64,000 nt of DNA from the NCBI GenBank assembly GCA_964016885.1, contig OZ024743.1, positions 369,582,001-369,646,000 of the forward strand, written 5' to 3'. Of this stretch, positions 7,899 through 53,555 are shown in pieces; position 1 is the stretch's first letter; each line of letters opens with the position of its first letter. This DNA is from Eledone cirrhosa. Lineage: Eukaryota. The notes under the pieces were generated by a model that searched no databases, was not told the DNA's origin, and was given only the letters and a program-made list of their open reading frames with translations. A program made the position numbers and the translations under genes.

Positions 7899-8828
7899 AA
7901 GAATGAGAAATAGGATAGATTGAGGGGACGGGCTGGTTGGAATTGGAAAAAATGTCTTATACACATACATGTATATATATTTATATATATATATATATAT
8001 ATATATGAATGTTATTTGTTAGTAGGTGTATGTATATGCATGTGTGTGTGTATATACGAGTATATGTATGTACACATTTGTGCGCTCACATGCAATCACA
8101 CATGTGCATATGTGTATACATACATGTGTATATATGTGTGTGTATAATTTTTATATACTATATCTTCACTTACAGATGCATCCACGCCGGTCAGGGCATA
8201 CTCATGTACGAGCCTACATCCGAAAATATTACTATTAATGTTTTCATTATTATTATTATTACTTTTGCTATCATTAATACCTTCAGTATTTTAATGTTTA
8301 ATCATTTTCCTTATATGGTAGTTGGAAATCATTTGGCTATTCCAAAAAGAATGTTTGGTCTCCTGATATTTTAATACTAAAAATATGCTTTTACCATAGC
8401 AAGAATTTATTCTCACTCCACATAATGACGTAATTATTCTTGCATACATTTTGCCTATCTCAAGAGAACGTCCTCACACGTTACCGTTATGTCTTTTTTT
8501 TTTTAAGGCAATATTTGGTTGCAACTTTTTTTACTTCTGCATCTACAGATTAATTTTGTGTGTGTATATATATATATATATATATAACAATATATTTAGA
8601 AACACACAGATACATGCGGACACACACATATATACATGAATGCATCCGTACCCAACTGTGAGTTAAGGGTGCCAACTTCACCGATGTTGCTCAATGAATG
8701 ACTGGGACAGACCAATTCAGTTGAACTAGACTGAACCAGTATCAGAGTTAAAAATACATTATGAAGAGAGAAGAAACATTTAGATATAATTAGTAATAAA
8801 ATGTATCATACCCAAACTGCTCCTAAAT

Positions 8829-8916
8829 TCCTCGACTACGTAGTTTCGTGGCATAAACAAAAACAATATATCAAAGATATAGAGTCCTTGCGAGGTCTGC
8901 CAACTTATCAAGAGGA
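8829..8916 (-). ncRNA. Type I hammerhead ribozyme, U3-A8 core variant, long stem II insert (family A)
   Basis: Minus strand: UCCUC-UUGAUAA-GUUGGCA...UGCCAC-GAA-ACUACGUAGU-C-GAGGA. Stem I UCCUC/GAGGA, palindromic stem III, GUC cleavage triplet. Confidence 0.75.
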
Positions 8917-9421
8917 TACCTCATTTTACTAGTCTCAAGAACGCGTCTACACGACGTGAGAAAGAATCTCAAAAGGCGGAGGGGGCGATAGTCACGCGAT
9001 ATAACGGTCGAGAAACAGAGCTAAGCCTCTTATAACCACGAAGAAAATACCACGGAGGCGGAGGGGGTATTCATATCGAGGCCGTAGAAGAGGTGGTGAA
9101 GAAGGCGAGAAGTATGAGTAATGGAAGCTTTCCAGTTGTCCCCACACTTCAAAGATTGCTCGACCAGAGGGAGTTATTAACAATATATTTAGAAACACAC
9201 AGATACATGCGGACACACACATATATACATGAATGCATCCGTACCCAACTGTGAGTTAAGGGTGCCAACTTCACCGATGTTGCTCAATGAATGACTGGGA
9301 CAGACCAATTCAGTTGAACTAGACTGAACCAGTATCAGAGTTAAAAATACATTATGAAGAGAGAAGAAACATTTAGATATAATTAGTAATAAAATGTATC
9401 ATACCCAAACTGCTCCTAAAT

Positions 9422-9509
9422 TCCTCGACTACGTAGTTTCGTGGCATAAACAAAAACAATATATCAAAGATATAGAGTCCTTGCGAGGTCTGCCAACTTA
9501 TCAAGAGGA
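9422..9509 (-). ncRNA. Second tandem copy of the family A hammerhead
   Basis: Same motif 593 nt from the first copy. Confidence 0.75.
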
Positions 9510-9789
9510 TACCTCATTTTACTAGTCTCAAGAACGCGTCTACACGACGTGAGAAAGAATCCCAAAAGGCGGAGGGGGCGATAGTCACGCGATATAACGG
9601 TCGAGAAACAGAGCTAAGCCTCTTATAACCACGAAGAAAATACCACGGAGGCGGAGGGGGTATTCATATCGAGGCCGATATATTGTTTTTGTTTATGCCA
9701 CGAAACTACGTAGTCGAGGAATTTAGGAGCAGTTTGGGTATGATACATTTTATTACTAATTATATCTAAATGTTTCTTCTCTCTTCATA

Positions 9790-9848
<59 letters not shown>

Positions 9849-22842: not shown

Positions 22843-22844
22843 GA

Positions 22845-24508
<1,664 letters not shown>

Positions 24509-24733: not shown

Positions 24734-24782
<49 letters not shown>

Positions 24783-25155: not shown

Positions 25156-25158
25156 GTA

Positions 25159-25197
<39 letters not shown>

Positions 25198-25246
25198 ATA
25201 TATATATATATATATATGTATGTGTATATATATATATATATATATG

Positions 25247-25276
<30 letters not shown>

Positions 25277-25277
<1 letters not shown>

Positions 25278-26946
25278 CCAAAGATCTCGGTCCAGTGACA
25301 TTGTCTTGGAGAGGTGTAAGTGTGTGAGGCCGGAATTTATCAAGGGTCTGCCTACTCTGTGGCTACCGTCTATTTTTATCGCCGTACACTTTTTTATACA
25401 GCTGTCGTCTTTCATGCGCATCATGTGACCATACCAACGTAGTCTTCTCTCGAGTAAACAACATCTGATCCCTCTTATTCCTAATTTCTCACTTAGTTCC
25501 TTTATCCTTTGCCATTCACGTATATTACTATTACACATCCAACGGAGCATGCAAGCTTCGCTCCTCCAGTCTGCGTATATCCTCTGCAGAGAATGCCCAA
25601 GTCTCAGTGCCATGTAACATTGATGTTCGTATGCAGGCATCATATAGGCTGCCTTTCATTTTTAGAGAGAAACCTTTAGCGGCCAATAGTGGTATAAGCT
25701 GTCTGAACTTTTTTCATCCCGTTCTGACTCTAGCTACTGTACTTTCAGAGCACCCTCCACCACTGCCTATTTTGTCACCTAGGTAACGGAAGGTGTCCAC
25801 TATTTCTATAGAACCATCTGTGCAATGGAATGAGCTAGTATTCTGTGGGCACTTGCTGCTACTTATTGCACCTGAGTACCGGCCACATATAAAATCTATA
25901 TTCTTAGTTAGCTTACCTGTGATCCCACTACATCTTTTATGCACCCATACTTTGCATTTGCATTTGGGACATAAAATGAAGTTTCAGGCTACTCCTTTCC
26001 TACACACTGAGCATGGCCATTTCCAAGATGGGTCTAGTGCCCTATTTTCCTTCTTACAAACTAGAACTTTAGTCTTAGACAGGTTAATTTTAAGGCCTTT
26101 TAATTCTAGGCCATGCTTCCATGTTTGGAATTTCTTCTCTAGTTCAGCCATTGATTCAGATATGAGCGTTAGATCATCTGCGTATAGCAGTTCCCATGGG
26201 CAGCCGGTCCTGAACTCCTCTGTTATAGCCTGAAGGGCAATAATAAATAGGAGGGGGCTAAGGACGGAGCCCTGATGAACACCAACTTTTACGCTAAACT
26301 CTTCACTATATTTGTTGTTAATTCTAACCTTGCTGACTGTTTCTTTATACAGGGCTTGTATAGCTCTCACAAGCCATTCGTCAACACCTAGTTTTCTGAG
26401 AGCCCACCAGATAATCGAACGGGGGACTCTGTCGAAGGCTTTCTCCAAGTCGACAAAAGCTAAGTATAGGGGTTTACTTTTAGCTAGGTACTTCTCCTGT
26501 AGTTGTCGTACAATGAAAAGAGCGTCTGTGGAACTTTTGCCTGACACAAACCCGAACTGCATTTCATCCAGATCAATTCTCTCTCTGATTAGTTGTGCTA
26601 TTACTTTTTCCGTGACCTTCATGACCTGGTCGATTAATTTAATGCCTCTATAGTTACTCCTATCTAGGGCATCTCCTTTACCCTTGTAGCAGTTAATGAT
26701 GATGCTGCTACGCCAGTCCTTCGGAACAACCCCATTCTGTATGACTTGGTTTACTATCCGGGTGACCATGGTGTGTCCCACCGAACCAGATGCCTTCAGC
26801 ATTTCAGCAACTATTTCCGAAGGCCCAGCCGCCTTACCTGTCTTCATATCTTTGATTGCCTTACTTATTATACTACCTTCAACTAACACTGCTGGTCCCT
26901 CTATTGGGTCGATGTGGGGGAGACTGTCTTTCTCCCATTTATTCTC

Positions 26947-26948
<2 letters not shown>
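25277..26948 (-). mobile_element. RTE-clade LINE RT domain fragment, frameshifted
   Basis: [32 protein letters not shown]. Both ends abut (TA)n. Confidence 0.93.
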
Positions 26949-26983
<35 letters not shown>

Positions 26984-27313
26984 GTATATATGTGTATATG
27001 TATATGTATATATGTGTATATATATATGTATATATATATGTATATATATATGTATATGTATATATGTATATATGTGTATATATATATGTATATATATGTA
27101 TATATATGTATATATATGTATATGTATATATATGTATATATATATGTATATATATGTATATATATGTATATATATGTATATATATATATATGTATATATA
27201 TATGTATATATATGTATATATATATGTATATAGAGAAAGAGAAAGAGCGAGAGAGAGAAAACACTGGAAGGTAATTTCCGTAGTGGTAGAGCACTCAATC
27301 CATGGGACGAGTC

Positions 27314-27375
<62 letters not shown>

Positions 27376-27682
27376 ATCATCGTCATCATTCAACTGTTTT
27401 TTCCTGCTAGCTATGCTTAAATACATGCAAACACATATGTACATATGCGTAATGTTACACGTGTGCCAAACAAAGAAATCACATTCTTTGCACCACATGT
27501 GCCATGAATGTAAGTCTTTGTAGACTTTTCATGCCATATAAATTAAACCATGTTGTGAAAGGAAAGCAGGAAAAAAATGATCTTGCAATTTAGATTTGTG
27601 TATTGTGTATGAATGAGTTAACATGAGGCAATAACTTGCCAACAATTATATATATATAAATATATAATCGTTATTTTATTAT

Positions 27683-27771
27683 ATGACTTCTACAGGACTA
27701 GAACTGTTTCGTTTGTAGGAAATAATGGTGATTTCTTACAAATGAAACAGCTCTAGTCCCGTAGAAGTCAT
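27683..27771. repeat. Fold-back inverted repeat containing only the 3' half of a hammerhead (GAAACAGCTCTAGTC)
   Basis: ATGACTTCTACAGGACTAGAACTGTTTCGTTTGTAGGAAAT pairs with ATTTCTTACAAATGAAACAGCTCTAGTCCCGTAGAAGTCAT. TA runs nearby on both sides. Confidence 0.55.
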
Positions 27772-28603
27772 TTCTGTAATAAAATAAATATACCTTAACG
27801 TATCGAGTACCTTTTTTTAACTGGTCACCTCTCGATAAACATTGGGAATCCAGTTATTATGTATATATATCCAGCTGTAAAGGATACATCCTATAATAAA
27901 TTATAGGTATTCGTACAGAATTTATATAGTGTTGCTATTATTCAATAATAAATGATACACATGTTGAAATATCTAATAATAGCCGATATGCAAAGTGTTG
28001 ATGGACCCAATAATAAAGTTTATACAAATAATCTTGATATTATTCAGTAATAAAGGATTCTCTACACATCTCATTTAAAAGATATCAAATGGATCATCTT
28101 TAATTGAAAATAATCATATGTACTTTAACAACCAAATATCTATATTTCATTTGATGTAGATGAACAAAAATGTCCACCACAGCAATATTTGAAACCACAT
28201 TTGTTCCACTTGTAGCATCTGCTGCTGTGCTAGTTTTCCTACTTAATGGCTGATAGTTTTCATTACTGTAAAATATTTAATCAATTTCCTCTCTTCCCTG
28301 GTGAATGCTCCGCAGCCTATATTGCTTCATTAGCAATCATATTTTCTGCTTACATGAAAAATGACTCTGCCTGTGCATATCTCTCTCTCCTTTTTACTCA
28401 TACCTCATTCTCTGTCTTCTCTCTCCCATGCTTTTCTCCCACTCACTCTCCTACTCATTTCTCACATTCCTATTATTGCTTTTCTCCCCTTCTTGCTTTT
28501 TATCTCTCCTTCCATACCCTAGCACTCCTTATTCCCACCCCCACTAGGCTCCTGCCTCTTTTCTGGCTATTTTCTGTGATTCTTCCATCAGTCACAGACC
28601 ACA

Positions 28604-28647
<44 letters not shown>

Positions 28648-29099
28648 AAGGGCATTCCTTACTGATCTTCAAAGTAGTTTGTAAAATCTGATCAAAGTTC
28701 AAATTCTCACAAATTTTGTCCCCTTAGGAACAATATTGGTGGCAGTAAATTGCATTCATCTTTTTGTTTTTTCTTCTAATAAATATACTCATGTCATAAA
28801 TCTGAACAGATTTGTTCTGAGTTTAGTTGAAAACTCAAACATCTCTAAAAAAATATATTTATGCATGAGTATTTTACAAATCTAGGCAAAAATAACTCTT
28901 ATTTTCCTTTTAATCCTCCCCCAAAATAAAGTTAAGGGAGATGATTCAGAGCAATGTATGACTTTATGTAGGCTCTTCCAGATTGTTTTGATATAGTTGA
29001 CATAGTGGGGCTGTTATTTTCTCCATCTCACATAACAAATGTTGTTTTACATCAGCTTCAGTATTCGGTCATTAGAAGGGAGATAGGTATAACAGCCAA

Positions 29100-30060
29100 G
29101 CTCGCTATCTTCAATTCACTGTTAGCATCAACGACTGCTTCAATACGAGGTCTGAAACATTGACGTGTTTGAATCAGATGATCTTTATCTATTTTGGACA
29201 TTGTGCTAGTTATGGCCAACTTCAGAGATTTTATAGTGTTACAGGAGCATTGATTGATTTCCCTCTTGACTACACTCCATGCATAGTAATCCTACGGATT
29301 GAGTTCTGGAGAGCAAGTAGGCCATGTTTGGTGTGATGTGATTGTGGATATTGTAACTCATCTAATCTTAGGTCATATTGGCCTTATGAGATGGCACAAA
29401 GTCTTGTTGATAGCTGTACGATTTTCTTTTGTTTATGCTCTCTATCCAAGGTTTCACAACCCTCTCGAACACCTTAGAGTCAACAGTATTGGCCCTTAAG
29501 CCCTGAGAAAAAAACTGAGGAGGCATGATATCTCCCTCATTGCTCACAACTTCCAGAACTATCATAGTTGCTGGAAACTTTGTGTTTGGGGCTGCCAGAA
29601 CAGCTTTAGGGTGTCTGCATAAGTATCTTTCATTCCTTCAGTTGACCTTTTGGTCTTGATAAAGTTACCTCAGAAAAAATCAAAACAAAGCATTCCAACC
29701 AACACTTTGCGTGTTTCAGATGGCTATCTTTTGTCTTCGCAGACATGAATTGGCCTCTCTGCATCACATATGGCTTGTATCCAAGGTTCTCATGCACAAT
29801 TCTTCTGATAGTGAGCCTTGAAACCTACCTTTCATACAAATTTGAATACTCTGATGGTATTATGACCGTTAGCAGTTGTTTTATGTTTGGCTACTGTTGT
29901 AGAATCCCCATTAGTGATTTCCAGCTCATTGCGAAGTTTGACAACAAACGACCATGCAATTTTCAGGAAAGGAGCAATCTCTAAATCACTATGCTCTACC
30001 TTTAAGGCAATGATTACAGTATGCTTTTTATTTGCTGAGTTAGCTTGATGTCTCTCATCA
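29100..30060 (-). mobile_element. Older degenerate maT-like transposase relic
   Basis: KFPATMIVLEVVSNEGDIMPPQFF, YQQDFVPSHKA, SPELNP*DYYAW. TIRs not recognised. Confidence 0.8.
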
Positions 30061-31059
30061 TTTATCTGAAAAGAAATGTTAAACAGAACAAGTTAGAAAA
30101 AAAGTTAGAGCTATTAAAAGATGTGTCTTCAACGAACTGAGCAATCTTATATGTCCTCATTGGCAAGTACAATAAATTGATATGTGCAAAGGAAGATATT
30201 CAACAAGGAAAGATTAAGTGTTTAGTACAAAGTTTGTTGACAATGTTCAATAGAAAGGATAGTTGAGAAAAAGCAGGGGAATTAATTGGTTGACAATCTC
30301 ATAGTGTAGAAGAGTAAGAAACATTTAAGTAGCAATAAAAAAAAAACAGAGCAGGTAGAAGCATTACAGCTTTGAATAGAATGCCTTGTATTTGTTCCAG
30401 ATCTCTGTATTCATGTTCAAATCCTACCAAAGTCAACTTTCCTTTTTATTCGTACAAGATAGATAAATACTGGGGTCCATTCATCTCTCTATTCTCCCCT
30501 CTCCTCTCTCTCAATCAACTTGTGCTGTGCCATGAGAAGGATTATGGGGACTACAGCATCCCTGTCACCAGAACTTTTACACTCAGTATTAAAAATTATG
30601 TTGTTGTTTGGCCTCAGGTTATCCCTGAGAAGAGCTAGAATAAAACACATTCCAATGATGAACATCCTTTGAACTTATGACAACATTGTTGAAAAGTTCT
30701 TTTTCTAAGATGGTGCATGTGATTTTAGGAAAATTCACTGCTATTTCTTTCAGGACAATTACCAACCTCTTCTTTTGAAAAACCTCATAAGTTAGAAAAA
30801 TCTATTAGTTTAGTAACATTGGCTATTGAATCACATATATCCCATGTGTACACCAGTTTTTAGAACAGGTACAATATATCTCTGTGTGTTGTAAGAGATG
30901 TCTAAAAGGTTTGGCATCAGGAAGTGCATCTGAATGTGAAACATTGCCTCTAAACTTCCCATCCAAACCATACCAGCATAGAAAAATGGACATAAAACGA
31001 TGATGAGCATACAATATAGGTACATTTAAAAAAATTAACTACAATTGGTCTTTCCCAAA

Positions 31060-32450
31060 TTAGGGTCTGTATTAGAGTGTATTCCAGAATACACTTCCTA
31101 CTCTCAGTTTACTGACAGCTCCTCTGTAAATGGGTTTCACTGTGTTCACAAACATTTTTTCTACACCTAATTTTCTTAAGGACCACCAGGTAATTGATCA
31201 AGGTACTCTGTCACAGGCCTTCTCTACATCAACAGCATCTCAACAACTATTTCTGATGGCCCTGTAGCTTTACTTTTTTTCATCTCTTTGATTGTGTCTT
31301 TGACTCTAAAACTATCAATTTCAATAGCTGGTCCTTTCTTTGGGTAAGTTAGGGATAATTTCTCTTTCTGCCATTCATTCTCTATATTCATTAATCTCTT
31401 ATTGCCTAGCTTCTTTCTTAGCTACTTGGTACCAGTCTCTACTACCACCATTTTTCCAGTCTTTCTATACCTGTCTCTTGGCTTTAATGGCTATATCTAC
31501 TGAGCTGTTCCACCACCAGGTCACCCACTGTCTGGCTGGTGCTTTACTCCAGCTGCAAGTCTTGCCAGTTGTTCGCATAAGGTTGTCGCGTAAGAATTTC
31601 CAGTTGTCCTCTATGGTGTATGTATCTAGCTTGTCATCCCCCTCATCAAGTGCATCCTGTAGGGCCTTTCTAAACCTATACTTAACCAAGTGGTCCTTTA
31701 GCTTCCACACCTGTCTCTATATTTTCCTGCGTGTCTTGGTCTGTTTTTTGTTTATTTTGATGTCACTAATCACGAACTTGTGCTGGGCAGTGCATTCTTC
31801 CCCAGGGAACGCCTTAGTATTATAGACCATTTGTCTTGTTTTACAAGTAAGAAATCAATTTGGCTTGTGTGTTCACCTGACTGAGATGAAATTAGGTAGT
31901 TGGCTGGTTTCCTGAAATTTGTGTTGCAAATGGTTGATTTATTTGGACACTGAGTTCCAGGAGTCGCAGCCCCTTGTCATTCCCATAACCATAGCCGCCA
32001 TGAACTCTGCTGAATCCATCCTGGTACTGTCCCACAAGTCCATTGAAGCCGTTTGCCAGGATGATGAGGTCCCTTTCATCAGTACCTGAAGTTGTCAGTA
32101 AAAGTTCCTCATAGAACTTGTCCTTTTGTTCTTTACCCAGTCCTGTGATTGTCACCAGTCTATTTCCAACAGTTAATCTAAGCTTGATGATTCTGTCACT
32201 TACTCTAACCACCTCTATCACCTTATCTATCCATTTCTCAGCTAGTAGGATGCCTACGCTATTGTCATTTTCTATCCAGTAGAGTTTATATCTAAGTTAC
32301 TTGCCCATGATTAGTCTCGCTGAGGAAGCCCTCCATCTCACTTTGTGTGCACAGCATGCATCTACTCCTCTTCTCTCTAGCAGTTCCACAATTTCACCTG
32401 ATCTGCCTTTCAGGGTACCAACATTGAGAGAGGCAGTCCTGAGATTTGTA
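31060..32450 (-). mobile_element. Degenerate RTE LINE: AP endonuclease and linker
   Basis: LNVGTLKGRSGEIVE, EVVRVSDRIIKLRL, GFNGLVG...HGGYGYG, TWWWNSSV. Confidence 0.8.
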
Positions 32451-33035
32451 CCTTGATAGTTGTTGTTACAATCATCAATGAAAATTTATTATTAAAAATT
32501 GTTTCTGTATCAGAAGAATGGAGATGGGTGTAAAAGCCAAAGTCGCTATCTTCAATTTGGTATTCATGCTAACCATTAACTATGATCATGAAAAGGTAAT
32601 GAACTAAAGAATATGATTGCAAATATAAATGACTAAAATGGAGATCAGAGAGTCGCTACAGGTAGAGCCACTACTTCTCCAAATTGAAATATCACAACTC
32701 CAATATTATGGGCATGTGGTTAAAATGCATAAGGAAAGAATCACTAGACAGATTTTATGGGAAGAACCAACCAGTAGGAGACCCAGGGGTAGACTCTGAG
32801 CAAGATGTATGGATATCATAAGCTCAGCTGGTCTTGCTTGGGGATCAAGGCAGATCAATTGGAAATAGTTGCTTCTGACAGGACTCACTGGAAGTCATGC
32901 TTGATGACTGCCTCCACAACTCACCGAGGAATAAGTTGGAGAAGTAGATGTTTGCGTATTCCTGTCAGCAATGAATTAATTATAGAATATTTTCTGACTT
33001 TGTGTTTATATTTTGCTTTGTTTTGTTTCTAACAG

Positions 33036-33162
33036 GGAGATTCCAGTGAATAACAGGCCTGTGATGAGTTCAAAAAATGGAACTAAAGCCCCTCTCTGTA
33101 AAGTCTGTGGGGATGAGTCATCGGGCTTCCACTATGGAGTTGATTCCTGTGAAGGATGTAAG
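33036..33162 (+). CDS. Exon of a nuclear hormone receptor gene: first C4 zinc finger of the DNA-binding domain (NR1 subfamily-like, Rev-erb/E75/E78/ROR neighbourhood)
   Basis: Translates [42 protein letters not shown] with P-box CEGCK. Preceded by a pyrimidine tract and AACAG acceptor (ends 33035), followed by AAG|GTAGGA donor at 33163. In-frame ATG at 33064 could be the start. The next exon (GFFRR...) was not seen. Confidence 0.93.
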
Positions 33163-33632
33163 GTAGGAAATTTAGTTTTATTTTATAGATTTTTATTTTT
33201 TATTCTCCAAAATGGGTAAAAAAAGAAATCAATATTCTCTTGTAGTCTTTTACTAGTTTCAGCCATTTTGGTTTGTGTTTATGTTGGGATACTACCATCA
33301 TAACATGTGTGTTCGTGTGTGTAATATATTATTAATGGATGTTAAATGATTATGATGATTATATATGTGTGTGTGTGTGTCTGTGTATCTGTGTGTGTGT
33401 ATACATACCTTGTGTTCAGAATAGATACACCTTATCTCTGTGTCGTAAGAAGCATCTAAAGGTGTTAGTGTCAGGAATGGCGGCGTCTCAAGACGTTCCA
33501 TCAACCCATGTTAGCATGGAAATATCAATGTAAAAATGATGATGATCATCCCCACTTTTTCCTTGTTCACATGAGTCAAACTGCTTGTCTGTGGTCTGAG
33601 ACTGGATGAGATCAGGAGAACCATTTTGCTTC

Positions 33633-34228
33633 ATCATCATCATCATCACCGTTTTACGTCCGTTCTTCCACGCTAGCATGGGTTAGACGGGTTGTCCTGT
33701 TGTGGGCAGTGTCTGGTCGGCTGACCATGCCTTGCTCATACAGGAACTGATCTGGCTTGATTTCTACAGCTGGATGCCCTTCCTAACACCAACCTCATTT
33801 ACAGTGAGTGCTGGGTGCTTTTTCGTGGCGCCTACACGTCCACTTTACAGTGTGGGCTGGGTGCTTTTTTGCCGTGGCACCTCCACGACCACCTTGCGGT
33901 GGGGGGGGGGGGGGGGGGCATATTGTTTATATGCTTCAGCATGTACCCATAGGAGGTCGGGTACCCTGTATTACTGCGTGACGCCAGAAGTCACGGTCGT
34001 GTGTCATTGACTTTGAGAGGTGTAGTTGGGTAAGATCGGCTTTTATCACCTCATCCCAAGTCATCTTGGGTCTCCCCACTCCGCGGTTTCCATCAACTTC
34101 TAGTGCTCTGCACCTTTTTATGCAGCTGTCATCCTTCATACGCATCACATGTCCATACCAGCGCAACCGCCTCTCCTGCACGCAGCATTTGATTCCTCTT
34201 ATGCTCAGTCTCTCTCTCAATTCCTTTG

Positions 34229-34230
<2 letters not shown>
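33633..34230 (-). mobile_element. RTE LINE 3' fragment
   Basis: [18 protein letters not shown]...GRPKMTW. The 5' end stops at (TA)n. Confidence 0.88.
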
Positions 34231-34277
<47 letters not shown>

Positions 34278-35157
34278 AGGGAGTGTAACACAGAGTTACT
34301 GTAGGTTCACCCAGGTGAGCACTCGATGTTTAGGTTCACTTCTGTATCGAGGTGTAGAGCTAGACAGAGTGTAGTATAATAAAATAAAACAAGGACAAGT
34401 GGTTACTCCTTCATTACGTTTATTGGTTGGTGACGCGCATTTCACCATTTCACCACCGATCAGCTGAAGGTTCGGTCTGTATCAATCCAGCCCGACTCTG
34501 TAATCTGCAGCTCGTCACAAATGAAAAAATGATTATACATGCTGTAGGAAAAAGTCTGATGTTCATATGCTGGTCAGTGAAATTTGTTTTGATTGGTGGA
34601 TTAATTCTGAGGGCTGTTTTCACCTGTAGTGAAGGGGAGGGTATGAGTGGTGATTATTTGGTGGAGCGGGACATAGATTTAAGTGGGTGGCTGTGTATGG
34701 CGGTTTGACTGTCATTAGACAGTTTGGCGTGTACGTTGGGGCTGATTCTCAGTGTGAGGTGTGGGTGTAGTAGTGGTGCGGTGTATGATACTGGATGGAA
34801 GATTGCAGTGTTTAAGGTGGGGTGTTAGGTGTGGTAGGGGATTGTTAGGGGACTCATGTTATAAGAAGTTAGTGATCAGAGTTTATGTACAGGCATATAC
34901 ATAGATATATACACGCACATGCACACACATTGGATATACATACACGTGTGTATACACGCTAGTAGGGAAAGATGGTGTGGGCATGTGTGTAAAACATACG
35001 TACACACAGACACACACACACACCCATCCCCATCCGTGCATGCACAAACTATATGCATATGGGTCTACACACACACTCGCATGCGCACACACACACACAT
35101 ATAAGTAGGATAAACATATATCTGTGTGCACACACACAGACACGCATATAAATCCAT

Positions 35158-35278
35158 GCCCAATATTGATCATATCTTCAAATTGTAAGAGGGATCAAAT
35201 CACCTGAAGAATAGGCCACACATTTGATCCTTCTTACAATCTGGAGATATGATCAATATTGGGCCTTGAAACCTTGTA
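35158..35278 (+). other. Fold-back inverted repeat overlapping a truncated long-stem-II hammerhead-like motif
   Basis: Arms at 35158-35200 and 35222-35264. CTGAAGA(35204)...AGGCC[insert]GGCCT-T-GAAACCTTGTA. Stem I does not pair. Confidence 0.45.
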
Positions 35279-35638
35279 CACTTATAAAGAACCCCTTCGG
35301 TCAAGAATGACCATGAGATTTGTGCCTAGAAAGTTTCCCTCTGACACGCAAGTCTGGGCTTGGTTGTTTGTGGCAGACCAGCAATCACTTATGCATACCA
35401 GTCTCTTCTCTCCGTGCCACTGATAATGTCCAAGGGAAAGGCAATGGCTTTGATTCAGCTCCTTAATTTAGTTGTTGTCAGAGTTTCTTTGGCTCAATGA
35501 TCTGAGCATTCAGCTGGTATCTTTTTCCATCTCTAGGGTCCTTTACCTCATTTTTATAAGCTATTTTATAGCAACTGACTATGATTACGGTTATTTTCTG
35601 TTTCCTCAGTTTGAATGCTCAAACTTCATACATGTCAC

Positions 35639-35672
<34 letters not shown>

Positions 35673-35675
<3 letters not shown>

Positions 35676-38360
35676 ATCATCATCATTGTCGTTTTAATGT
35701 CCACTTTTCCTGTTCATAAGGGTTGGCAAGTCTACATAGACCAAGTCAGTACTGCAGCGGTGGCTTCTGATCTCCTTGACAAACCAAGGATCTGTTATCT
35801 TGATTATGTGTGGTCTCACATTCCCCCTAGTGCACAAGGGTGGTTGTAATGTCTTTGACACAACTGAGGCTCCTCCCAACCTTTGTTTAGAAAGTAGCAG
35901 CTCTACCTGGTGTGACTCTTTGATCTCTGAGCTACACATTCTATCAAGTAACGTTACTCCGAAACCCTTTGGAGGGACCACTTTTCGGCCACTTGTATTT
36001 GTGATCGTATTCTTTTGGTCATTACCCAAGATTCATGAACATAGGTATGGGTTGGCCCGAAAACCGAATTGAAGATTGAGAGTTTGGCTTTTACACCTAC
36101 CTCCCTATTTCTGATTACCGAACGCTGAAGCTGGCACATTACTGCACCAGTTCCTGCTATTCTTGATTTTAATTCAGCCTCTTACTTTCCATCACTCATG
36201 AACACGGCCCAGAGATACTTGAACGTCTCTACCTGCTTCAGTGGAACTCTATTCACATGTAAAGTGCAGGCTTCCTAAAGAGGACGAGTGATTCAGTTTC
36301 CGCAGAACTGATTTTCATTCCAGCCATAGGCACTCGACATCAAACCTATCAAGTAACACCATGTCGTCTGCAAATTTCAGCTGACTGATTCTACACCCGC
36401 CAGTCATGATACCCGGCTGTGCATGTCAATCCTAGGATAGTCCAACTCCCACATTGAATGGTTTTGATTTATCACCATTTATCTAAACACAAATACTTGG
36501 GCATTCTTATAGCGGCACCAGGGCAGCAAGTAGCTGACCATCCATCCCATAGTTCTGTACAACCTTCCACAGCAAGTCCCGAGGAACGCGGTCATATGCC
36601 TTTTCAAGGTTGACAAAAGAAGAATATGCTTCTTGGCAATACACCCATGATTTCTCGAAGATCTGCCACAGTGTGAATATTTCGTCGGGGCGAAAACTCG
36701 ACTGTTCATCAGCTAGCTCGAACTCAAAAATCTCCCTGCATCTCTTTGCCAGACACTTAGCATAGACTTTACGGGGGGATCCCTCTGTAATTGGAACAAT
36801 CCCTCTTGTGTCCCTTTCTGAAAATTGGGATTATCACTCCCGATTGTCATTGCTTAGGTGCCTTTCCAGAGATCCAAGCCACTCAGCACACACGAGTCAG
36901 CCAGAGAATACCTTCTCTATTTAAGGGATTTAACATCTCTGACTGAATTTCATTTTTCCCAGCCTATACCACATTTGAGATCTTTAACTGCACTTGTGAC
37001 CTCAACCCCTGAGAGATTAGTCACTGCTTCGAGATGCAACTCATGTACATTAGAAGATGCTGTTGTGATTGGATTTAGGAGATCAGCAAAGTATTCCCTC
37101 CACCTTGCGAGGAAGCACCTCTCTGAAAAGAGAACCCTAGACGTGTTCCTGATAGGTGTGGAGGACTTCTTATTATGAAGTCGCCGGATGGTCTGCCAGA
37201 ACACTTTATTTGCTGATCTGAAGATGGATTCCAGCTTATACCCAAAGTCCTTCCATATCTCAACTATGGACATTTTTACTGTCTCTGCTACGATTCTTTG
37301 TGCTTGCTTGTACCGCAAGTGCAAGAAGGTGGACTTATTTCCAAGCCAAGCTTTGTAGGCCTCCTTCTTTGCTCGGTTGCCATCTTTGACCCCTTCATTG
37401 AACCAAGGTGTCCTCCTGCCATCCGGTGCCACACCAAGCCTCCTTCACCCGCAGCATTTAACAGCTGAAGCAGAAACTGCTTATATGGACAAGCTCCTCT
37501 CTGTCTCAATGTCCTCAGTTTGCTGAATTTGGATGCAATAGTATCTGCATACTTGGTCCTGACTCTCTTAACCATCAACGCTTCCAATTTTATTCCGTAG
37601 GTCACCCTGGGCCTGCCAGTTCTGTGGGCTTCTTTGGCTTTAGGTAGTCTCAAGTTTCAGATAACTAGATGGTGATCAGTTGACAGCTCAGCCCCTCTCT
37701 TAACATGAACATTAAGCATAGAATTGAAGAATTCAGAGACAATAACAAAATCAATTATTGATACTGTCCCGGATTGTACCATGTATATTTATGGATGTGT
37801 CTGTACTGGAAGGTGTTCGTAATAAAGAGCCTATTGCTAGGACAGAAATCTAATAAGACCTTTCCATTCATATTTAGATCGGGGTCACCATTCCTGCCAA
37901 TCACTCCTTTCCAGGTCAGGTCGTCAGTGCCAACATGTGCATTGAAGTCTCCTATCAGGTTATATGACTGTCTTAACTACATCTAATGCTGCAGTGACTT
38001 CATCAAAGAAGGACCTGTATTCAGACACCTCGTTTAGTGCATAAACTTGCAACATCGACAGAGACCTATCTTTTAGTCTAAGCTTGAAGAGGCAAATCCT
38101 TCCTCTTAATGGGATCTAGTCCATAACACATTCTGACAGCCATGGATTTGTGAGTATCTCCACTCCTGCTTATGCAGTCATTTCTGTCCACACCTGAATA
38201 GTGGAGTTTCCATCCTCTATCTCAATCTACAGTACCAGAGCCACGGAACTTTGTTGAGCAAATCCTGACTATATCTCTCCAGTAGCATCTTGACTCTTTC
38301 ACTAGTTCCTGTTCCTTACCTGTAAGGGTTGTGATGTTCCAGGTTCCAATTGTCAAGGTT
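35673..38360 (-). mobile_element. Long degenerate RTE LINE of a second family (APE + RT)
   Basis: [54 protein letters not shown] motifs across frames. Related fragments at about 2460-2630, 5700-6200 and 32520-32950. Confidence 0.8.
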
Positions 38361-40083: not shown

Positions 40084-40537
40084 TTTAAGTAAAAAGAAAT
40101 TCAAACACAAACTGGCACGAAAGCTAATGTGCTTATTCACGTGACTGCATCAACCAACCAAACTTCACTCATATTTGAAAAAACAATCTGAGCCCCCCTT
40201 TTTTTGAAGGCAAATACAATAAGAACTGGTGCAAAATTTATTATACTTATTCACCAACCAAATTACTTCTCTAAAAACCTAGCATTTCGAGCCACTTTTT
40301 TCCATATAAAACAAGTAACACCAACCAGATGTGAGAAAAACCACAAACACTCCATCTCAACTCTACTTTTGAAAAGCACAAGAAGTGCAAAACCGGTCAA
40401 GAAACCAAATAAATATATTTTAAAAAAAAAAGACTCCAGTTGCATTTTCGATTTCATCTTTTTTCCTTATACTTTCACTCGTGTAGGTCACCTCATTTTG
40501 TAAAAAAACCTCACTTTCTAATATATATATATATATG

Positions 40538-41186
40538 TATCATCAGCATCGTTTAACATCCATTTTCCATGCCAGCATGGGTAGGACGGTCTGTCCCTTT
40601 GTGAGAGATCAGGTCAGATGACATGTTTCGTTCACACACACCTGATTTTGGCTTGGTTTCTATGGCTGGAAGCCCTTCCTAATGGCAACCACATAGCGTG
40701 TGCTGAGTATTCTTTGTCGTAACACCTACACAACAACTTTACAGTGTGTGCTGGGCACTTTTTGTTGCATTGCCAACATGACCACTTTACAGTGGCACTT
40801 TTGTTGTGGCTCCAGGGTGACCACTTTATGTGGAGGGGTGGGGGTGGAAAATATGCCTGGGTAATTGGGGGCATAGTTATAGGGGTGGGATGATTACAGA
40901 AAGGGAGATGTATTGGAGGGGTGATGGTAGGGAAGGTGTTGCAGACTAGATACATGCCTCAGCTGGAGCATATGAGAGGGTAGGTCTTCTGTAATACTGC
41001 ATAGCGCCAGAGATCATGGTCCTGTGTCATCACCTTAATGAGGTGTACTTGTGCAAAGTCAGCGTTTATTACCTCATCCCAAGTCTTCCTAGGCCTGCCT
41101 ACTCCAGGGCTATCGTTAACTTAGAGCGCTCTGTACTTTTTTATACAGCTGTCGTCTTTCATACACATCACATGTTCATACCAACG

Positions 41187-41187
<1 letters not shown>
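40538..41187 (-). mobile_element. Degenerate RTE 3' end
   Basis: Shared 3' UTR motifs (GGCTGGAAGCCCTTCCT, TTTAACATCCATTTTCCATG) and ORF-end remnants. Confidence 0.7.
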
Positions 41188-41222
<35 letters not shown>

Positions 41223-41464
41223 CAATATATTTAGAAACACACAGATACATGCGGACACACACATATATACATGAATGCATCCGCACCCAACTGTGAGTTA
41301 AGGGTGCCAACTTCACCGATGTTGCTCAATGAATGACTGGGACAGACCAATTCAGTTTGAACTAGACTGAACCAGTATCAGAGTTAAAAATACATTATGA
41401 AGAGAGAAGAAACATTTAGATATAATTAGTAATAAAATGTATCATACCTAAACTGCTCCTAAAT

Positions 41465-41552
41465 TCCTCGACTACGTAGTTTCGTGGCATAAACAAAAAC
41501 AATATATCAAAGATATAGAGTCCTTGCGAGGTCTGCCGACTTATCAAGAGGA
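41465..41552 (-). ncRNA. Family A hammerhead (U3-A8)
   Basis: Same fold as 8829-8916; the bulged stem II base is C instead of U. Confidence 0.75.
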
Positions 41553-42347
41553 TACCTCATTTTACTAGTCTCAAGAATGCGTCTACACGACGTGAGAAAG
41601 AATCCCAAAAGGCGGAGGGGGAGAAAGTCATGCGATATAACGGTCGAGAAACAGAGCTAAGCCTCTTATAACCACGAAGAAAATACCACGGAGGCGGAGG
41701 GGGTATTCATATCGAGGCCGTAGAAGAGGTAGTGAAGAAGGCGAGAAGTATGAGTAATGGAAGCTTTCCAGTTGTCCCCACACTTCAAAGATTGCTCGAC
41801 CAGAGGGAGTTATTAACAATATATTTAGAAACACACAGATACAGCGGACACACACATATATACATGAATGCATCCGCACCCAACTGTGAGTTAAGGGTGC
41901 CAACTTCACCGATGTTGCTCAATGAATGACTGGGACAGACCAATTCAGTTTGAACTAGACTGAACCAGTATCAGAGTTAAAAATACATTATGAAGAGAGA
42001 AGAAACATTTAGATATAATTAGTAATAAAATGTATCATACCTAAACTGCTCCTAAATTCCTCGACTACGTAGTTTCGTGGCATAAACAAAAACAAAAACA
42101 ATATATCAAAGATATATCAAAGGGACAACTGGAAAGCTTCCATTACTCATACTTCTCGCCTTCTTCACTACCTCTTCTACGGCCTCGATATGAATACCCC
42201 CTCCGCCTCCGTGGTATTTTCTTCGTGGTTATAAGAGGCTTAGCTCTGTTTCTCGACCGTTATATCGCGTGACTGTCTCCCCCTCCGCCTTTTGGGATTC
42301 TTTCTCACGTCGTGTAGACGCGTTCTTGAGACTAGTAAAATGAGGTA

Positions 42348-42435
42348 TCCTCTTGATAAGTCGGCAGACCTCGCAAGGACTCTATATCTTTGATATATTG
42401 TTTTTGTTTATGCCACGAAACTACGTAGTCGAGGA
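42348..42435 (+). ncRNA. Family A hammerhead (U3-A8) in the inverted arm
   Basis: TCCTC TTGATAA GTCGGCA...TGCCAC GAAACTACGTAGTC GAGGA reads directly on +. Confidence 0.75.
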
Positions 42436-42504
42436 ATTTAGGAGCAGTTTAGGTATGATACATTTTATTACTAATTATATCTAAATGTTTCTTCTCTCTT
42501 CATA

Positions 42505-42554
<50 letters not shown>

Positions 42555-44640: not shown

Positions 44641-46547
44641 ATTTTTCTTCTCTGAGTCTCCTTTTCTTTTTGATCTAAACATAAAAATAAAGCCTTAAAT
44701 TGTTAACACGATGCAGTCATTGTGGTGTTTTGTGTTTTTCAAGAAATTCTTGCTGATGTGGTTTCATGTGGTTAACATACCTTTCGCATGAACCACCAAA
44801 AGAATGACATGTTGTTAATGCAAACATAGCTTTATGTCAGACAAATCATGTGACTTGAACAACGTATGTTAGTCAAGACCTAACACAATTATCCTTGAAA
44901 TAGGACAAAAAGTTAGCATACTTCACCCTCTTTTCCTAACCATTCTTTTGCTGTCTTTGAAATTGTCAGTCAATGAATTTACCAAAGGGTGCTACCAGCT
45001 GCTTTTCAACATTTTCCTTTCTTCAATTATTCTCCAAACAATATTTATTTTCTTTATATCTTTCCTTTTTTTCAACTGTAATTCTATTCTTAAGTCTGAC
45101 CTTTGTGTTTGTATTTTTATTTTTTGTTTTACTTTTATTTATTTTGAAAAATTCTTCAAACTTCCAGTTGTGTTTAAGAATCAGATATTTTGCAGTGATA
45201 TGCCAAATATTTAGGTAGCAGTAGTAGCAGCCATAAAAATATATATTAAAATGAATATATTGCAAAATTTGCATCTTTGTAAAATTGATTACTATTCACT
45301 TTATTATTATTACAAAATGCTCTATGGTATATATTCTGGCCCTTTGCCTTCTGAGTTCAAATCCCACTGAGGTTAGCTTCGTTTTTCATTCTCAGTGGTC
45401 GATAAATAAAGTACCAGTAACACACTGGGTTGATTTACTCAACTTTCCTCTTCCCTTCAAATTGCTGGCCTTGTGTCAAAAATAGAAACAATTATTATTA
45501 TTATTAGTTGCCCAATTCTTTTTTTTTATGGGCTCATATTTTCTTTCTTCCTATTGTGTAGTTTCTTAGTTGTGTTATATGTGTGTGACTAATATTCAGA
45601 ATAATCGACTGGACACTTTTTGCTACCAGTTTTAACTGCAATGTAGCTCCAATCTCTCTCCTTTTAGCTGAATTATGTTGATCTCATTACACTAGATCAA
45701 ATATCGAAGATCGACAAGTTTTTCCAACTAGGAGGTTGTATTCTCAGTTTATTTGCAAGCTGAAAATTTAATTTGATTGCTTTGTTACTTATTGCTGTTG
45801 TTGTATTGTTGAAAACTGAACATTTAGATTAACTTTTAGCTCTTTTCTAACTGTTGAATATTTTCTACTGCAGGCCTTTGTAACAAATGCCTACATGGCC
45901 TCAATAAAGATGTGGAGGAGAATACTTTACTTTTTTAAAAAACAAACAAACATTGCAATTAAAACAGCATCAACAATCTGAGCCTGTTAATTATATAGGA
46001 GTGTTTGTTATGAATAGTTTTTAACTAATGATTTCTCTGTCTTGGATAACCATAACTTTATTAGTGAAGAATTGCACATTTATTTGTTTAATATCATTGA
46101 TAAAAACATTAAGTAAAACAAAAAAGAAAATCTTAAATCATTAAGTAATTATATTTAATGAATAAATAAGCTGGGGCCTACCAATTTGTATCTCAAAAAT
46201 TCTGCTTGCATTCTTTAGACCACTGGGTCCCACCACTGCACATCAGTGGGTGTTCTAATATATTTTCTCTCTTAACCCTTTTGTTATCGTATTTATATAT
46301 ACGAGCTGGACCCGTGAAAAAATTAACGGATAATCCCCGCTCTCTATATTATAACCCCCTCTCTCTAAATATGTTAAAGCCCCCCCCCCCTTCTCTATAT
46401 TATAGCCCCTCTCTCTATATTATAACCCCCTTTTCTCTATATATTATAACCCATCCCTTTCTCTATATTATAAACCCCTCTCTTTAAATATAGTATAACC
46501 CACTCTCTCTATATATATATTATAACCCCCCCCCTCTCTCTCTATAT

Positions 46548-47876
46548 ATCATCATCATCATCATCATCATCATCAACGTTTAACGTCCGTGTTCCATGCT
46601 TGCATGGGTTTGGACGGGGGTAGTCCCACTTGAGGCAAGAGTGATTGTCTTGCTCGCATAGGACTGTCTGGCAGGTTTTCTACAGTTGGATGCCCTTCCT
46701 AACACCAACCACATTTACAGTGTGGGTCTGGGAGGTTTTTACCGTGTTGCCTACACGGCCACATTACAGCGTGGACTGTGTGTTTTTTTGTCGTGACACC
46801 TACACGATCTCATTTGTTTTGGCCTGGATGGCGCGGCACCAACATAACTTTACATAGAACGGGGTGGTGTGGATGGGGTGGGGGTGGTGGCGGGACAGGG
46901 TGTATTTTGTTAGAGATGCCTACTGGCAAGGCGGGTCTTCTCTGTTACTGAGTACCGCCAAAGGTCTCGGTCCAGTGACATTGTCTTGGAGAGGTGTAAG
47001 TGTGTGAGGTCGGAGTTTATCAGCTCATCCCAGGTTTTTCTAGGTCTGCCTATTCCATGGCTACCGTCTATCTTTATTGCCCTGCACTTTGTTATACAGC
47101 TATCGACTTTCATGCGCATCACGTGTCCATACCAACGCAGCCTTCTCTCGAGTAAACAACATCTGATCCCTCTTATCTCTAATTTTTTCCTTAGTTCGTT
47201 TATGCTTTGCCGTTCACGTATATTACTGTTACACATCCAGCGGAGCATGCAAGCTTCGTTCCTCTCTAGTCTGCGTATATCCTCTGCACACAATGCCCAG
47301 GTCTCACTACCATGCAACATTGCTGTTCGTATGCAGGCATCGTACAACCTGCCTTTCATTTTTAGGGTGAACCCTTTAGCAGCTAATAGTGGTATAAGCT
47401 CTCTGAACTTTTTCCAACCAGTTCTGACTCTAGCTACAGTACTTTCAGAACACCCTCCCCCACTGCTGATTTTATCGCCCAGGTAACGGAAGCTGTCCAC
47501 TATTTCTATAGAACCCTCTGCGCAATTGAAAGAGCTAGTATTTTGTGGGCACTTGCTGCTACTTATTGCACCAGAACACCGGCCACATCTAAAATCTATG
47601 TTCTTAGTTAGCTTACCTGTGATCCCACTACATCTTTTATGCACCCATACTTTGCATTTAGGACATAAAATGGAGTTTCTACCTACGCCTTTCCTACACA
47701 CCGAGCACGACCATTTCCCAAAAGAGCGTCTGTGGTACTTTTGCCTGACACAAACCCAAACTGTATTTCATCTAGGTCAATTCTCTCTCTGATTAGTTGC
47801 GCTATTACTTTTTCCGTGACCTTCATGACCTGGTCGATTAATTTAATGCCTCTTTTAAATTAATCGACCAGGTCAT
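46548..47876 (-). mobile_element. RTE LINE, same subfamily as 19516-20760, with internal deletion and terminal fold-back
   Basis: 263-aa ORF nearly identical to the 19.5-kb copy. Jump to upstream RT sequence at about 47720. 22-bp inverted repeat at 47825-47876. Confidence 0.92.
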
Positions 47877-50200: not shown

Positions 50201-50354
50201 CAGCTGCTCTGGGTGGACATTATTGGAATAAAAAATGTTTTGGATTCCTTTAAAAATGCTTGTGGACTAATTTGAAAGTGTCTCATATATAATTCATATA
50301 TATATATATATATATTTTAGTCTTCAAATTTATTATTATTACTATATATAAATA

Positions 50355-51970
50355 TCATCATCATCGTTTAACGTCTATCTTCCATGCTAGCATGTGTTTA
50401 GACGGGAAGTGTCCTTCTTGAGGCAAGATTGGTCATCTCGCTCGTATAGACTGTCTGGCAGGTTTCCTAACACCAACCACGTTTACAGTGTGGACTGGGA
50501 GGTTTTTACCATGTTACCTACACGGCCATATTACAGCGTGGACTGTGTGTTTTTTTTGTTGTGACACCTACACAACCTCATTTATTTAGGACTGAATGTT
50601 GTGGTACCAACATAACTTTACACAGAAAAAGGTGGTGTAGATGGGGGTAGGGGTAGTGGGATGGGGGTGTATTTTTGGTTAGGAGGCACCTACTGACTGT
50701 AGGTTTCGCTTTGTACTTAGGCAAGGTGGGTCTTCTGTATTACTGCGTAGCGCCAAAGATCTCGGTCCAGTGACATTGTCTTGGAGAGGTGTAAGTGTGT
50801 AAGGTCGGAATTTATCAAATCATCCCAGGTTTTTCTGGGTCTGCCTACTCCGGGGCTTCCATCTATTTTGATGGCCCTGCACTTTTTTATGCAGCTGTCG
50901 TATGTCATGCGCATCACGTGACCATACCAACGTAGTCTTTTCTCGAGTAAGCAGCACCTGATCCCTCTTATTCCTAAGTTCTCACTTAGTTCCTTTATCC
51001 TTTGCCGTTCACGTATATTACTATTACACATCCAATGGAGTATGCGAGCTTTGTTCCTCTCCAGTCTGCGTAGGCCCTCTGCACGTAATGCCCATGTCTC
51101 ACTGCCATGTAACATTGCTGTTCGTATGCAGGCATCATACAGCCTGCCTTTCATTTTTAGAGAGAAACCTTTAGCGGCTAATAGTGGTATAAGCTCTCTG
51201 AACTTTTTCCATCCCGTTCTGACTCTAGCTACTGTACTTTCAGAGCAGCCTCCACCACTGCTGATTTTGTCACCCAGGTAACGGAAGGTGTCCACTATTT
51301 CTATAGAACCATCTGTGCAATGGAATGAGCTAGTATTCTGTGGGCACTTGCTGCTACTTATTGCACCTGAGCACTGGCCGCATATAAAATCTATATTCTT
51401 CGTTAGCTTACCTCTGATCCCATTACATCTTTTATGCACCCATAAAATGGGACATAAAATGGAATTTCTACCTACTCCTTACCTACACACTGAGCATGGC
51501 CATTTCCCAGAGGGGACCAGTGCCCTGTTTTCCTTCCTACATACTAGAACTTTAGTCTTAGACAAGTTAATTTTAAGGCCTTTTGATTCTAGGCCATGCT
51601 TCCAAGTTTGGAATTTCTCCTCTAGTTCAGCCATTGATTCAGCTATGAGTGTTAGATCATCTGCGTATAGAAGTTCCCATGGGCAGCCGGTCTTGAACTC
51701 ATTTATTATAGCCTGAAGGGCAATAATAAATAGGAGGGGGCTAAGGACAGAGCCCTGATGAACATCAACTTTTACGCTAAATTCTTCTCTACATTCGTTG
51801 TTAATTCTAACCTTGCTGTTTCTTTATACATGGCTTGTATAGCTCTCACGAGCCATTCATCAACACCTAGTTTTCTAAGAGCCAGATAATGGAGCGGAGG
51901 ACTCTGTCAAAGGCTTTCTCCAAGTCAACAAAAGCTAGGTATAGGGGTTTACTTTTAGCTATGTACTTCT
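50355..51970 (-). mobile_element. RTE LINE, 5'-truncated at (TA)n
   Basis: 240-aa ORF plus upstream RT motifs ([24 protein letters not shown]). Confidence 0.92.
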
Positions 51971-52566: not shown

Positions 52567-52851
52567 TTTAAATAAAGCCCTTATCGTACAGCCAACTATG
52601 TTACTCTTCATTGTTTAACTATATATATATATATATATATATATCAGATAGGGTGTGGTAAAAAAAAACCAGGTGGACCATAACCCACCAGAGTACTCGA
52701 TACTTGCGGTAGTAGAGTGGGTATTATGAAATATTCAGGACCCCGATGGCTGAGCTCCGGCTGTTTCGAAAGTTAGATCCAGTTTGGATCTAGCTGTCGA
52801 AATGGGTAGAGTTCAGCCGTCGGGGTTCTGAATCCTTTCATATATACATAT

Positions 52852-53555
52852 ATTGAAGGGGGCATGTTCTGGCCTTCTGCAAGAGCATTCTGGGAGGGTT
52901 GAGCTCTTGGGGTTGGTGGTGATGTGGGCTTTCATATTTTTAGCACAGGAATAACTAAGTTTCACCCTGTGTCTATTGAAGATAGGGCTGTATTTATGAC
53001 CTGTGGGGAAGTGTTTATCTAGGAGTGCTAAGAATTTGCTACCTACATTGGTTCTAACTCTGAGGGAGAAGGGTGGGCAGAACCAAATTATTTTTTTTAT
53101 TTCTACTTCTTTTCTTGCTGGTAGTGTGATTTGGAGGGGAGTAAGAAATTTGTCAGGGAAGCTGCTGTTGTCTTCATCAACAACAGTGTAATGTATCCAC
53201 AATAGTCTAGGAAGCTGAAGTTACGTCTACTCGACTAAACCAACAACAGGAGGTCAAAACATAAGTGGGTATGACTGAGAGTCGGTTTAAAGAATGCTTC
53301 CTTAACCATGAGACGACTTTTAGACACTCAGATAAGCTATCATCTATGAAGCTGACAATCCACATATGGTTACTCAAAGATGCATACATGGCTTACTCCA
53401 TACAATGGAAAGTTCTAACCAAACTAGGCCATATGGAAATGGGAACTTGTCTTGTGGGCTGTGGATCGATGAACGAATAAATATCTTACAGAGATTATGT
53501 AATAGTACTTGTCTCATTACAAGATCTGACTTTTTTAATTGTAAGCAATATTAAA
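52852..53555. mobile_element. Penelope-like element 3' fragment with 5' inversion: RT-EN linker on minus, GIY-YIG endonuclease on plus
   Basis: Minus: IIWFCPPFS..V.TNVG.KFL.LLDKHFP....IFNR..VKLSYSC..NMK...CSCRR. Plus from about 53183: QCNVSTIV*EAEV...T*VGMTESRFKE...NHETTFR...HIWLLK...IQWKVL. Confidence 0.85.

Follow-up and report, generated by a model that had tools for sequence, protein, structure and literature searches.

Metazoan non-LTR retrozymes are non-coding repeats whose tandem units, with a GC content below 50%, each contain a type I hammerhead ribozyme, and their mobilisation is proposed to involve a circular RNA template and Penelope-type enzymes (PMC7229834; bioRxiv 10.64898/2026.07.22.740005). 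In the first of these reports (Cervera and de la Pena 2020, PMC7229834), the use of retrozyme circles as templates of reverse transcriptase (RT) is put forward as a hypothesis only, and the word "inverted" is absent from its main text. Moreover, the hammerhead motif alone is an insufficient guide to activity, since 8 of 9 predicted Xenopus elements failed to cleave (Li, Clavereau and Pollet 2026, bioRxiv 10.64898/2026.07.22.740005). The insertions of Penelope-like elements are described as partial tandems with an inverted 5'-truncated copy and often a tail at one end, located in (TA)n targets and without a discernible TSD (PMC8557442, PMC3846280). The published account of the inverted structure is self-priming or EN-mediated resolution (Craig et al. 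2021, PMC8557442; Arkhipova et al. 2013, PMC3846280), and the origin of tandem and inverted structures with a one-sided tail is treated as an open matter (PMC8557442, PMC11167929). The purified Poseidon protein PAc nicks and extends both strands at AT-rich DNA, starting at two internal RNA sites downstream of the hammerhead that define the tail, and was modelled as a dimer; its two sites adjoin each other, and the strands were not seen to differ in where extension began (Frangieh et al. 2024, PMC11167929).

The window, meaning the whole 64-kb stretch of DNA that was analysed, contains two copies of a repeat in which AACAATATATTTAG occurs at 8586 and 41221, with internal repeats at 9179 and 41815, and CTTCATAATGTA terminates at 9794 and 42509. 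Both copies are ordered as (TA)n, direct arm, inverted arm and (TA)n, and all four of their outer ends adjoin (TA)n. On a unit ruler set at window 41222-41814, the left termini of both copies fall at 590-4 (site A) and the right termini at 169 (site B), the spacing between the two sites being 168 nt. The first-pass annotation had described identical outer termini bounded by (TA)n, and both the sequences and the positions were reproduced; its two fixed sites about 170 nt apart correspond to A and B, at which priming would take place. The direct arms do break at different points (9677 and about 42116) and the inverted arms do differ in length (117-119 and 389 bp), as it had also stated. The 593-nt tandem unit, the hammerhead motif and the direct, non-inverted form of about half of the copies, all described below, go beyond that annotation. 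The features of the two copies are as follows.

41188..41221, no strand: left (TA)17 half of the target microsatellite
41221..42116, minus strand: direct arm of copy 2, 1.5 tandem units from site A (unit 590 -> 593 -> 296)
41222..41814, minus strand: single 593-nt unit, 41% GC
41465..41552, minus strand: predicted type I hammerhead with U3-A8 core UUGAUAA, long stem II and palindromic stem III
42058..42116, minus strand: second hammerhead, 3' half only
42117..42121, no strand: inversion junction of copy 2, a 5-nt filler repeating nearby sequence
42122..42509, plus strand: inverted arm of copy 2, 389 nt from site B (unit 169 -> 557), RNA sense on the plus strand
42348..42435, plus strand: complete predicted hammerhead in the inverted arm of copy 2
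42508..42551, no strand: right (TA)22 half of the target
8586..9677, minus strand: direct arm of copy 1, 1.84 units from site A
9677..9794, plus strand: inverted arm of copy 1, 117-119 nt from site B

In copy 2, the ribozyme (RNA-sense) strand of the direct arm is the minus strand, and the hammerhead at 41465..41552 has its predicted cut between 41470 and 41469. Because the second hammerhead of this arm is present by half, release of a monomer from the arm is likely impossible. In the inverted arm, the hammerhead is predicted to cut after 42430, a point that lies 79 nt upstream of site B, and a 6-nt slippage duplication (42084-42089) lies by the inversion junction. The direct arm of copy 1 has two complete predicted hammerheads (8829-8916 and 9422-9509), and TA runs surround this copy at 8565-8586 and 9793-9846. 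An older RTE-like fragment (40528-41187) sits between the left TA run of copy 2 and a further TA run at 40522-40535, so that the TA tract likely predates the insertion of copy 2. Between the two copies, 10 of 593 positions differ, and no alignment was obtained between their 2-kb flanks, except for a 136-nt inverted repeat fragment of 70% identity shared by the left flanks; since flanks and haplotypes differ, the copies are separate insertions, and the segmental duplication against which the first-pass annotation had cautioned is excluded.

The unit is non-coding, its longest ATG ORF being 81 aa in sense and 36 aa in antisense, and with no unit ORF above 81 aa the RT plus GIY-YIG ORF of an autonomous Penelope-like element is absent. 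The 593-nt units lie head-to-tail, with arms reaching ~7 units (L202), and LTR-type direct termini were found in none of 95 copies. The hammerhead, first recognised by eye against the hammerhead consensus, comprises stem I and the core UUGAUAA, which carries the U3-A8 exchange, together with an extended stem II that contains a bulge, GAAA, stem III as a palindrome and a GUC cut. Its descriptor fits one of the two strands only, and none of 3000 dinucleotide shuffles satisfied it. The hammerhead-constrained fold has -20.7 kcal/mol against -21.8 for the MFE, a cost of 1.1 kcal/mol, and all 39 essential positions are intact in 229 of 260 unit copies. L159, a copy of the sister subfamily that was encountered by chance, has changes at 1 of 39 essential and 68 of 293 other positions (p=0.001); this copy was used in place of L212, whose conservation test (p=0.026) was set aside because L212 had been found with the ribozyme pattern. 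Inherited variants in the ribozyme of the young family (4/111 vs 15/199) lie in the direction of depletion, not significantly (p=0.22). An Rfam scan gave 14 weak matches, none to a hammerhead family and none at the gathering score, covariation in the hammerhead pairs of 18 copies consisted of one-sided G-U changes only, not above shuffles, and a search with a short-stem-II hammerhead pattern returned family variants and one chance match only.

Judged by its sequence, the repeat fits a metazoan non-LTR retrozyme with predicted hammerhead activity. As these elements are characterised in the reports cited, it shares with them the non-coding tandem unit, the GC content below 50% and one type I hammerhead per unit, and its unit length lies between the limits of 51-972 bp reported by Li et al. 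(bioRxiv 10.64898/2026.07.22.740005). It differs from them in a 593-nt unit longer than the validated retrozyme circles (170-400 nt), in the U3-A8 core and an atypically long stem II, and in its fixed two-site ends and inverted arms. With the published Penelope-like footprint it has in common the partial tandems, the inverted truncated copy, the one-sided tail, the (TA)n targets and the absence of a discernible TSD, whereas the 593-nt unit is without an ORF, the tail measures 168 nt instead of the 30-40 bp reported for Penelope-like elements, and the one-sidedness of the tail is a strict rule here and an option there.

Across the 3.0 Gb genome, the ribozyme core has 6,872 exact matches. Exact (TA)-B ends number 2,628 genome-wide and (TA)-A ends about 2,070, the latter figure being derived from 1,036 on the reverse strand, the forward-strand count of 2,334 being inflated through overlapping matches. 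Reversed control patterns of the end motifs have 0 matches genome-wide, which, set against thousands of exact ends, excludes chance as the source of the end sites. About 3,500 insertions would follow genome-wide from the 1.36 listed ends per copy. The main sample, C1 0-77 Mb, consists of 93 fetched loci that gave 95 copies. As one exact end was demanded per locus, the ribozyme-core list was also examined as a second anchor (C1 0-54 Mb, 50 loci, 46 of them already in the main sample). The termini are non-random, as the first-pass annotation had it: each of the 50 core-list loci ends at A or B on one side or both, the 4 outside the main sample included. Duplicate views (L006, L008, L019, L021, L028, L029, L319 and L320) were dropped from the counts, as were the compound L005 (the same as L318) and, where stated, the second copies of L076 and L309. 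Apparent ends at unit positions 542 and 52 were BLAST breaks at small indels and were rejected.

Inverted and direct copies are about equally represented in the main sample (49 and 46 of 95), and the direct copies end at A in 20 cases and at B in 26. TA is present on both flanks of 47 of the 49 inverted copies, the priming registers at the ends show TA microhomology, and a convincing non-TA TSD was found in none of the 95 copies. The median divergence within an insertion is 0.41% (n=93), which bears out the earlier suggestion that the copies are recent.

Sites A and B are paired strictly in inverted copies. Facing pairs of listed termini in C1 0-77 Mb are A+B in 34 of 34 cases (p about 6e-11), and the inverted copies of the same interval are A+B in 47 of 49, 2 having a truncated end, with 0 A+A and 0 B+B. 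A held-out set (C1 77-103 Mb, 28 loci with 29 copies), which was B-anchored and in which A+A is undetectable by design, gave 16 A+B, 1 truncated, 12 direct and 0 B+B. Each set counts one locally duplicated copy twice; taken together, the sets contain 66 inverted copies, of which 63 are A+B, 3 have a truncated end and none is homotypic. Every inverted copy with both ends intact pairs A with B, which supports the two-primer reading of the first-pass annotation. In the sister subfamily (79% identity), A and B recur at homologous positions, and the 20 inverted copies among its 30 loci comprise 15 clear A+B, 1 interrupted, 4 unassignable and 0 homotypic. This subfamily is older, with a unit of ~587 nt and an identical ribozyme core (L159:6830-7395; L247-L276). 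A Neptune-like Penelope family of the same genome, taken as a control, has 4 heterotypic and 5 homotypic inversions (Fisher p=4e-5); as it breaks the rule, such pairing is not an automatic outcome of having two sites. An autonomous Hydra-like Penelope family with a spacing of 88 nt between its two ends has heterotypic inversions in 7 of 8 cases. The element class and the qualitative footprint are already published, whereas searches of open-licence papers listed none on strict end pairing, shared-template arms or edited retrozyme insertions; in PMC7761336, nothing further on inversions was found.

The best explanation is probably that a Penelope-type RT-endonuclease complex cuts both target strands and primes two cDNAs on one RNA, itself probably circular. 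Tandem copies would be transcribed on the ribozyme strand, cut into monomers and ligated, and the complex would nick a TA tract on both strands. Of the two 3' ends, one would prime at A, about 245 nt past the ribozyme cut, and the second at B, 79 nt past it. Each RT would then circle the template with strand displacement over a random distance, the two cDNA 3' ends would be joined through microhomology repair, and priming by a single end only would give a direct copy. As each site occurs once per monomer, the A+B rule would be forced. Two internal RNA sites downstream of a hammerhead, extension of both strands and an AT-rich target are likewise features of the published PAc reaction; unlike there, the present family has its sites at a distance of 168 nt, each strand excluding the site used on the other, with TA microhomology at the priming registers.

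The arms of an insertion share their haplotype. At 16 common non-CpG sites, arm differs from arm in 9 of 456 comparisons (51 informative of 66 inverted copies) and, in the held-out set, in 0 of 130 (27 further copies), against a discordance of 34.6% between copies at common sites; in 44 matched copies, divergence between arms is 0.50% vs 0.43% between tandem units. Rare variants at sites covered at least three times occupy all units in 17 cases (in 10 copies), one unit in 74 and some of the units in 7 of 98, one of the latter alternating (L305), and the partial patterns are not expected of a pure monomer. A mutation that arose once and fills all units argues for a unit-length template copied repeatedly. 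There are 31 haplotypes, with a denominator given as 46 doubly covered or 91 fully typed copies, so that many loci serve as sources. Arms exceed one unit in 38 of 92 cases, inner ends lie near the ribozyme cut in 2 of 138 vs 2.3 expected, and the cut is passed without an indel in 288 of 288 passages. A arms run through site B in 36 of 46 cases, for which strand displacement would be needed on a single template. These sequence data point to a single RNA of unit length, likely a circle, as the template for copying from the two sides of the break, and they fit one RNA molecule or two monomers of the same source locus alike. Some pairs among the 16 common polymorphic sites show all four combinations, which suggests recurrent change or template recombination, and 9 of the 16 are A/G on the ribozyme strand. 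In L305 (unit position 298), L205 and L047, variants alternate or fill a block of tandem units, a hint of dimer-length templates, of errors copied onward or of local duplication.

The A+B pairing and the shared haplotypes would be explained equally well by an asymmetric dimer that holds two RNAs of one source locus, or an uncut multimer, the geometry of the protein setting A against B without any circle. Heterotypic inversions likewise prevail, at 7 of 8, in the autonomous Hydra-like family, whose unit measures 3.3 kb, PAc is reported to insert in vitro without ribozyme cleavage (PMC11167929), and a few partial variant patterns (the 7 above) do exist. Nevertheless, a single-unit mutation of the source should then stay single-unit in the daughter, whereas the 17 rare variants are found in every unit; the 31 haplotypes would demand many long master arrays; and, in the pooled data, rare variants found in both arms are A-to-G in 8 of 29 cases vs 2 of 55 for those in one arm. 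We consider such a dimer unlikely.

A single, probably circular template is therefore preferred here, and its RNA may in addition bear a mark of editing. Among 28 private non-CpG variants that are fixed across every unit of their copy, 11 are A-to-G when read on the ribozyme strand (first 126 copies), compared with 5 of 103 single-unit variants (p=1e-5). In 45 further copies, the strict test gave 1 of 10 vs 1 of 33, which is not significant, and variants present in at most 4 copies gave 6 of 23 vs 2 of 51 (p=0.009), with U-to-C as frequent as A-to-G (6). Pooled, the counts are 16 A-to-G and 7 U-to-C, against a base ratio of 118:194 (p=0.002), and a 5' U is enriched (14/23, p=0.03), the depletion of 5' G not being significant. 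ADAR has a neighbour-base preference, and transcription-linked mutation bias is an alternative source of an A-to-G excess. ADAR editing of the RNA intermediate is best taken as a lead, replicated partly and weakly. The fuller claim, that inverted insertions are the product of two RTs rolling round a single, sometimes ADAR-edited, ribozyme-made circle from fixed and mutually exclusive starts, is held tentatively, with a little more doubt than belief.

The inner junctions are uniform around the unit (Rayleigh p=0.58, 138 ends), and the two arms have median lengths of 516 and 518 nt that are uncorrelated. The arms overlap in 43 of 46 pairs; 3 pairs are disjoint and 6 overlap partly without nesting, so that non-nested pairs amount to 9 of 46, compared with 9.5 +/- 1.9 expected under independence. 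Overlaps of at least 2 nt are found at 26 of these 46 junctions, 0-1 nt at 11 and small fillers at 9. In L1 twin priming, both target strands prime on one RNA and the 5' inversion is joined by microhomology, the sites being the poly(A) end and a variable internal site and the arms barely overlapping. The present insertions share with it the two-strand priming on one RNA, the inversion and the joining by microhomology; unlike in L1, both sites are fixed and internal, and the arms overlap in nearly all pairs and run past one unit.

The self-priming or fold-back model of Arkhipova 2013 has a single cDNA reversing direction, either along itself or along an antisense template. It has been published for Penelope inverted repeats with palindromic junctions (PMC3846280) and would account for the shared haplotype. 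Exact fold-back, with both arms turning at the same position, is indeed seen at 3 of 46 junctions, more than uniform ends predict, but inner-end offsets spread from 0 to 296 nt and the outer ends are different sites, not one site. As arm lengths are independent and the non-nested pairs match independence, a single folded cDNA fails for most copies, which the 3 disjoint arm pairs also contradict; it is very improbable as a general account, although it may hold for a few palindromic junctions. Least credible of all is that rearrangement after insertion, gene conversion, segmental duplication or misassembly made the inversion and the arm identity: local duplications spanning whole copies do occur (L076, L309), inverted repeats are hard to assemble and the locus was read from the assembly, the contigs of four sequencing runs not reaching across it, but the flanks and haplotypes of the window copies differ, the same two ends recur thousands of times, and gene conversion predicts many partial patterns where 7 of 98 are seen.

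For priming from both sides of the break on one probably circular RNA, a Hydra-clade enzyme is the best guess as partner, given the TA targeting and the heterotypic ends. Among 107 loci reached with three Penelope-like queries, a small part of the 22,000-36,000 candidates per query, no autonomous element was related in sequence to the unit, and neither the Hydra-like L103-L118 nor the Neptune-like L119-L168 nor the older Hydra-like L217-L246 have any sequence in common with it. The Hydra-like Penelope family L103-L118 (e.g. L106:2922-5063, L109) is young, with intact ORFs of ~713 aa, a 3.3-kb unit and TA targets. No canonical hammerhead was found in it by the descriptor, a core-like motif lying about 60 nt before the first end, and Pfam gave no significant match to its ORF, the clade being assigned by the motifs given in PMC8557442. 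The Neptune-like Penelope family L130-L168 is very young, with a frame of 775+ aa, a 4.2-kb unit and a canonical-core hammerhead; its ends are about 55-60 nt apart and pair both ways.

If the circle model is true, the family would give direct genomic evidence for retrozyme circles as templates of Penelope-type enzymes, and Penelope inverted repeats would stem from programmed double-strand twin priming and not from self-priming. Additionally, the family offers thousands of young natural reaction products with countable rules, namely that A pairs with B only, that the arms share a haplotype and that the cDNA crosses the ribozyme cut seamlessly, and a retroelement enzyme able to write into a break from its two sides, with no separate priming of the second strand, would be relevant to RNA-templated insertion tools.

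Some minor observations concern the genome and the window. At window 41448 (minus strand), 22 nt after the predicted cut, two contigs of sequencing run X7 leave the unit exactly at the donor-like AG/GTATGA, which is followed by a branch-point-like motif and a pyrimidine tract spanning site B; splicing or the remnant of a Penelope-type 5' intron is possible, and the loose-end motif of these contigs has no exact match in the genome. L318 (C3:334.12 Mb) consists of two complete A+B inverted copies joined via one short TA run; its label as B+B was rejected, since these are two adjacent A+B copies sharing that run, likely through re-insertion into the flank of an earlier copy. The duplications at L076 and L309 are local tandem ones about 2.6 kb apart, each including a whole inverted copy. 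Unrelated hammerhead-like repeats were met by chance in the flanks of L107:1980, L108, L128, L148, L155, L157, L161 and L162, which suggests that the genome holds many retrozyme-like families.

Within the window, decayed Hydra-like Penelope ORF fragments at 7117-7476 (plus strand) and 52813-53220 (minus strand) were used as queries. Fragments with RT-like ORF pieces and (ATC)n tails, which we take to be an RTE-like LINE, lie at 19279-20821, 25278-26649, 46543-47853, 50284-51970 and 40528-41187; they mostly adjoin TA-rich tracts, and the longer copies are 83-95% alike. Finally, in the interval 13327-24508, degenerate arrays of (TA/TATG)n run to great length and are separated by inverted repeat blocks.
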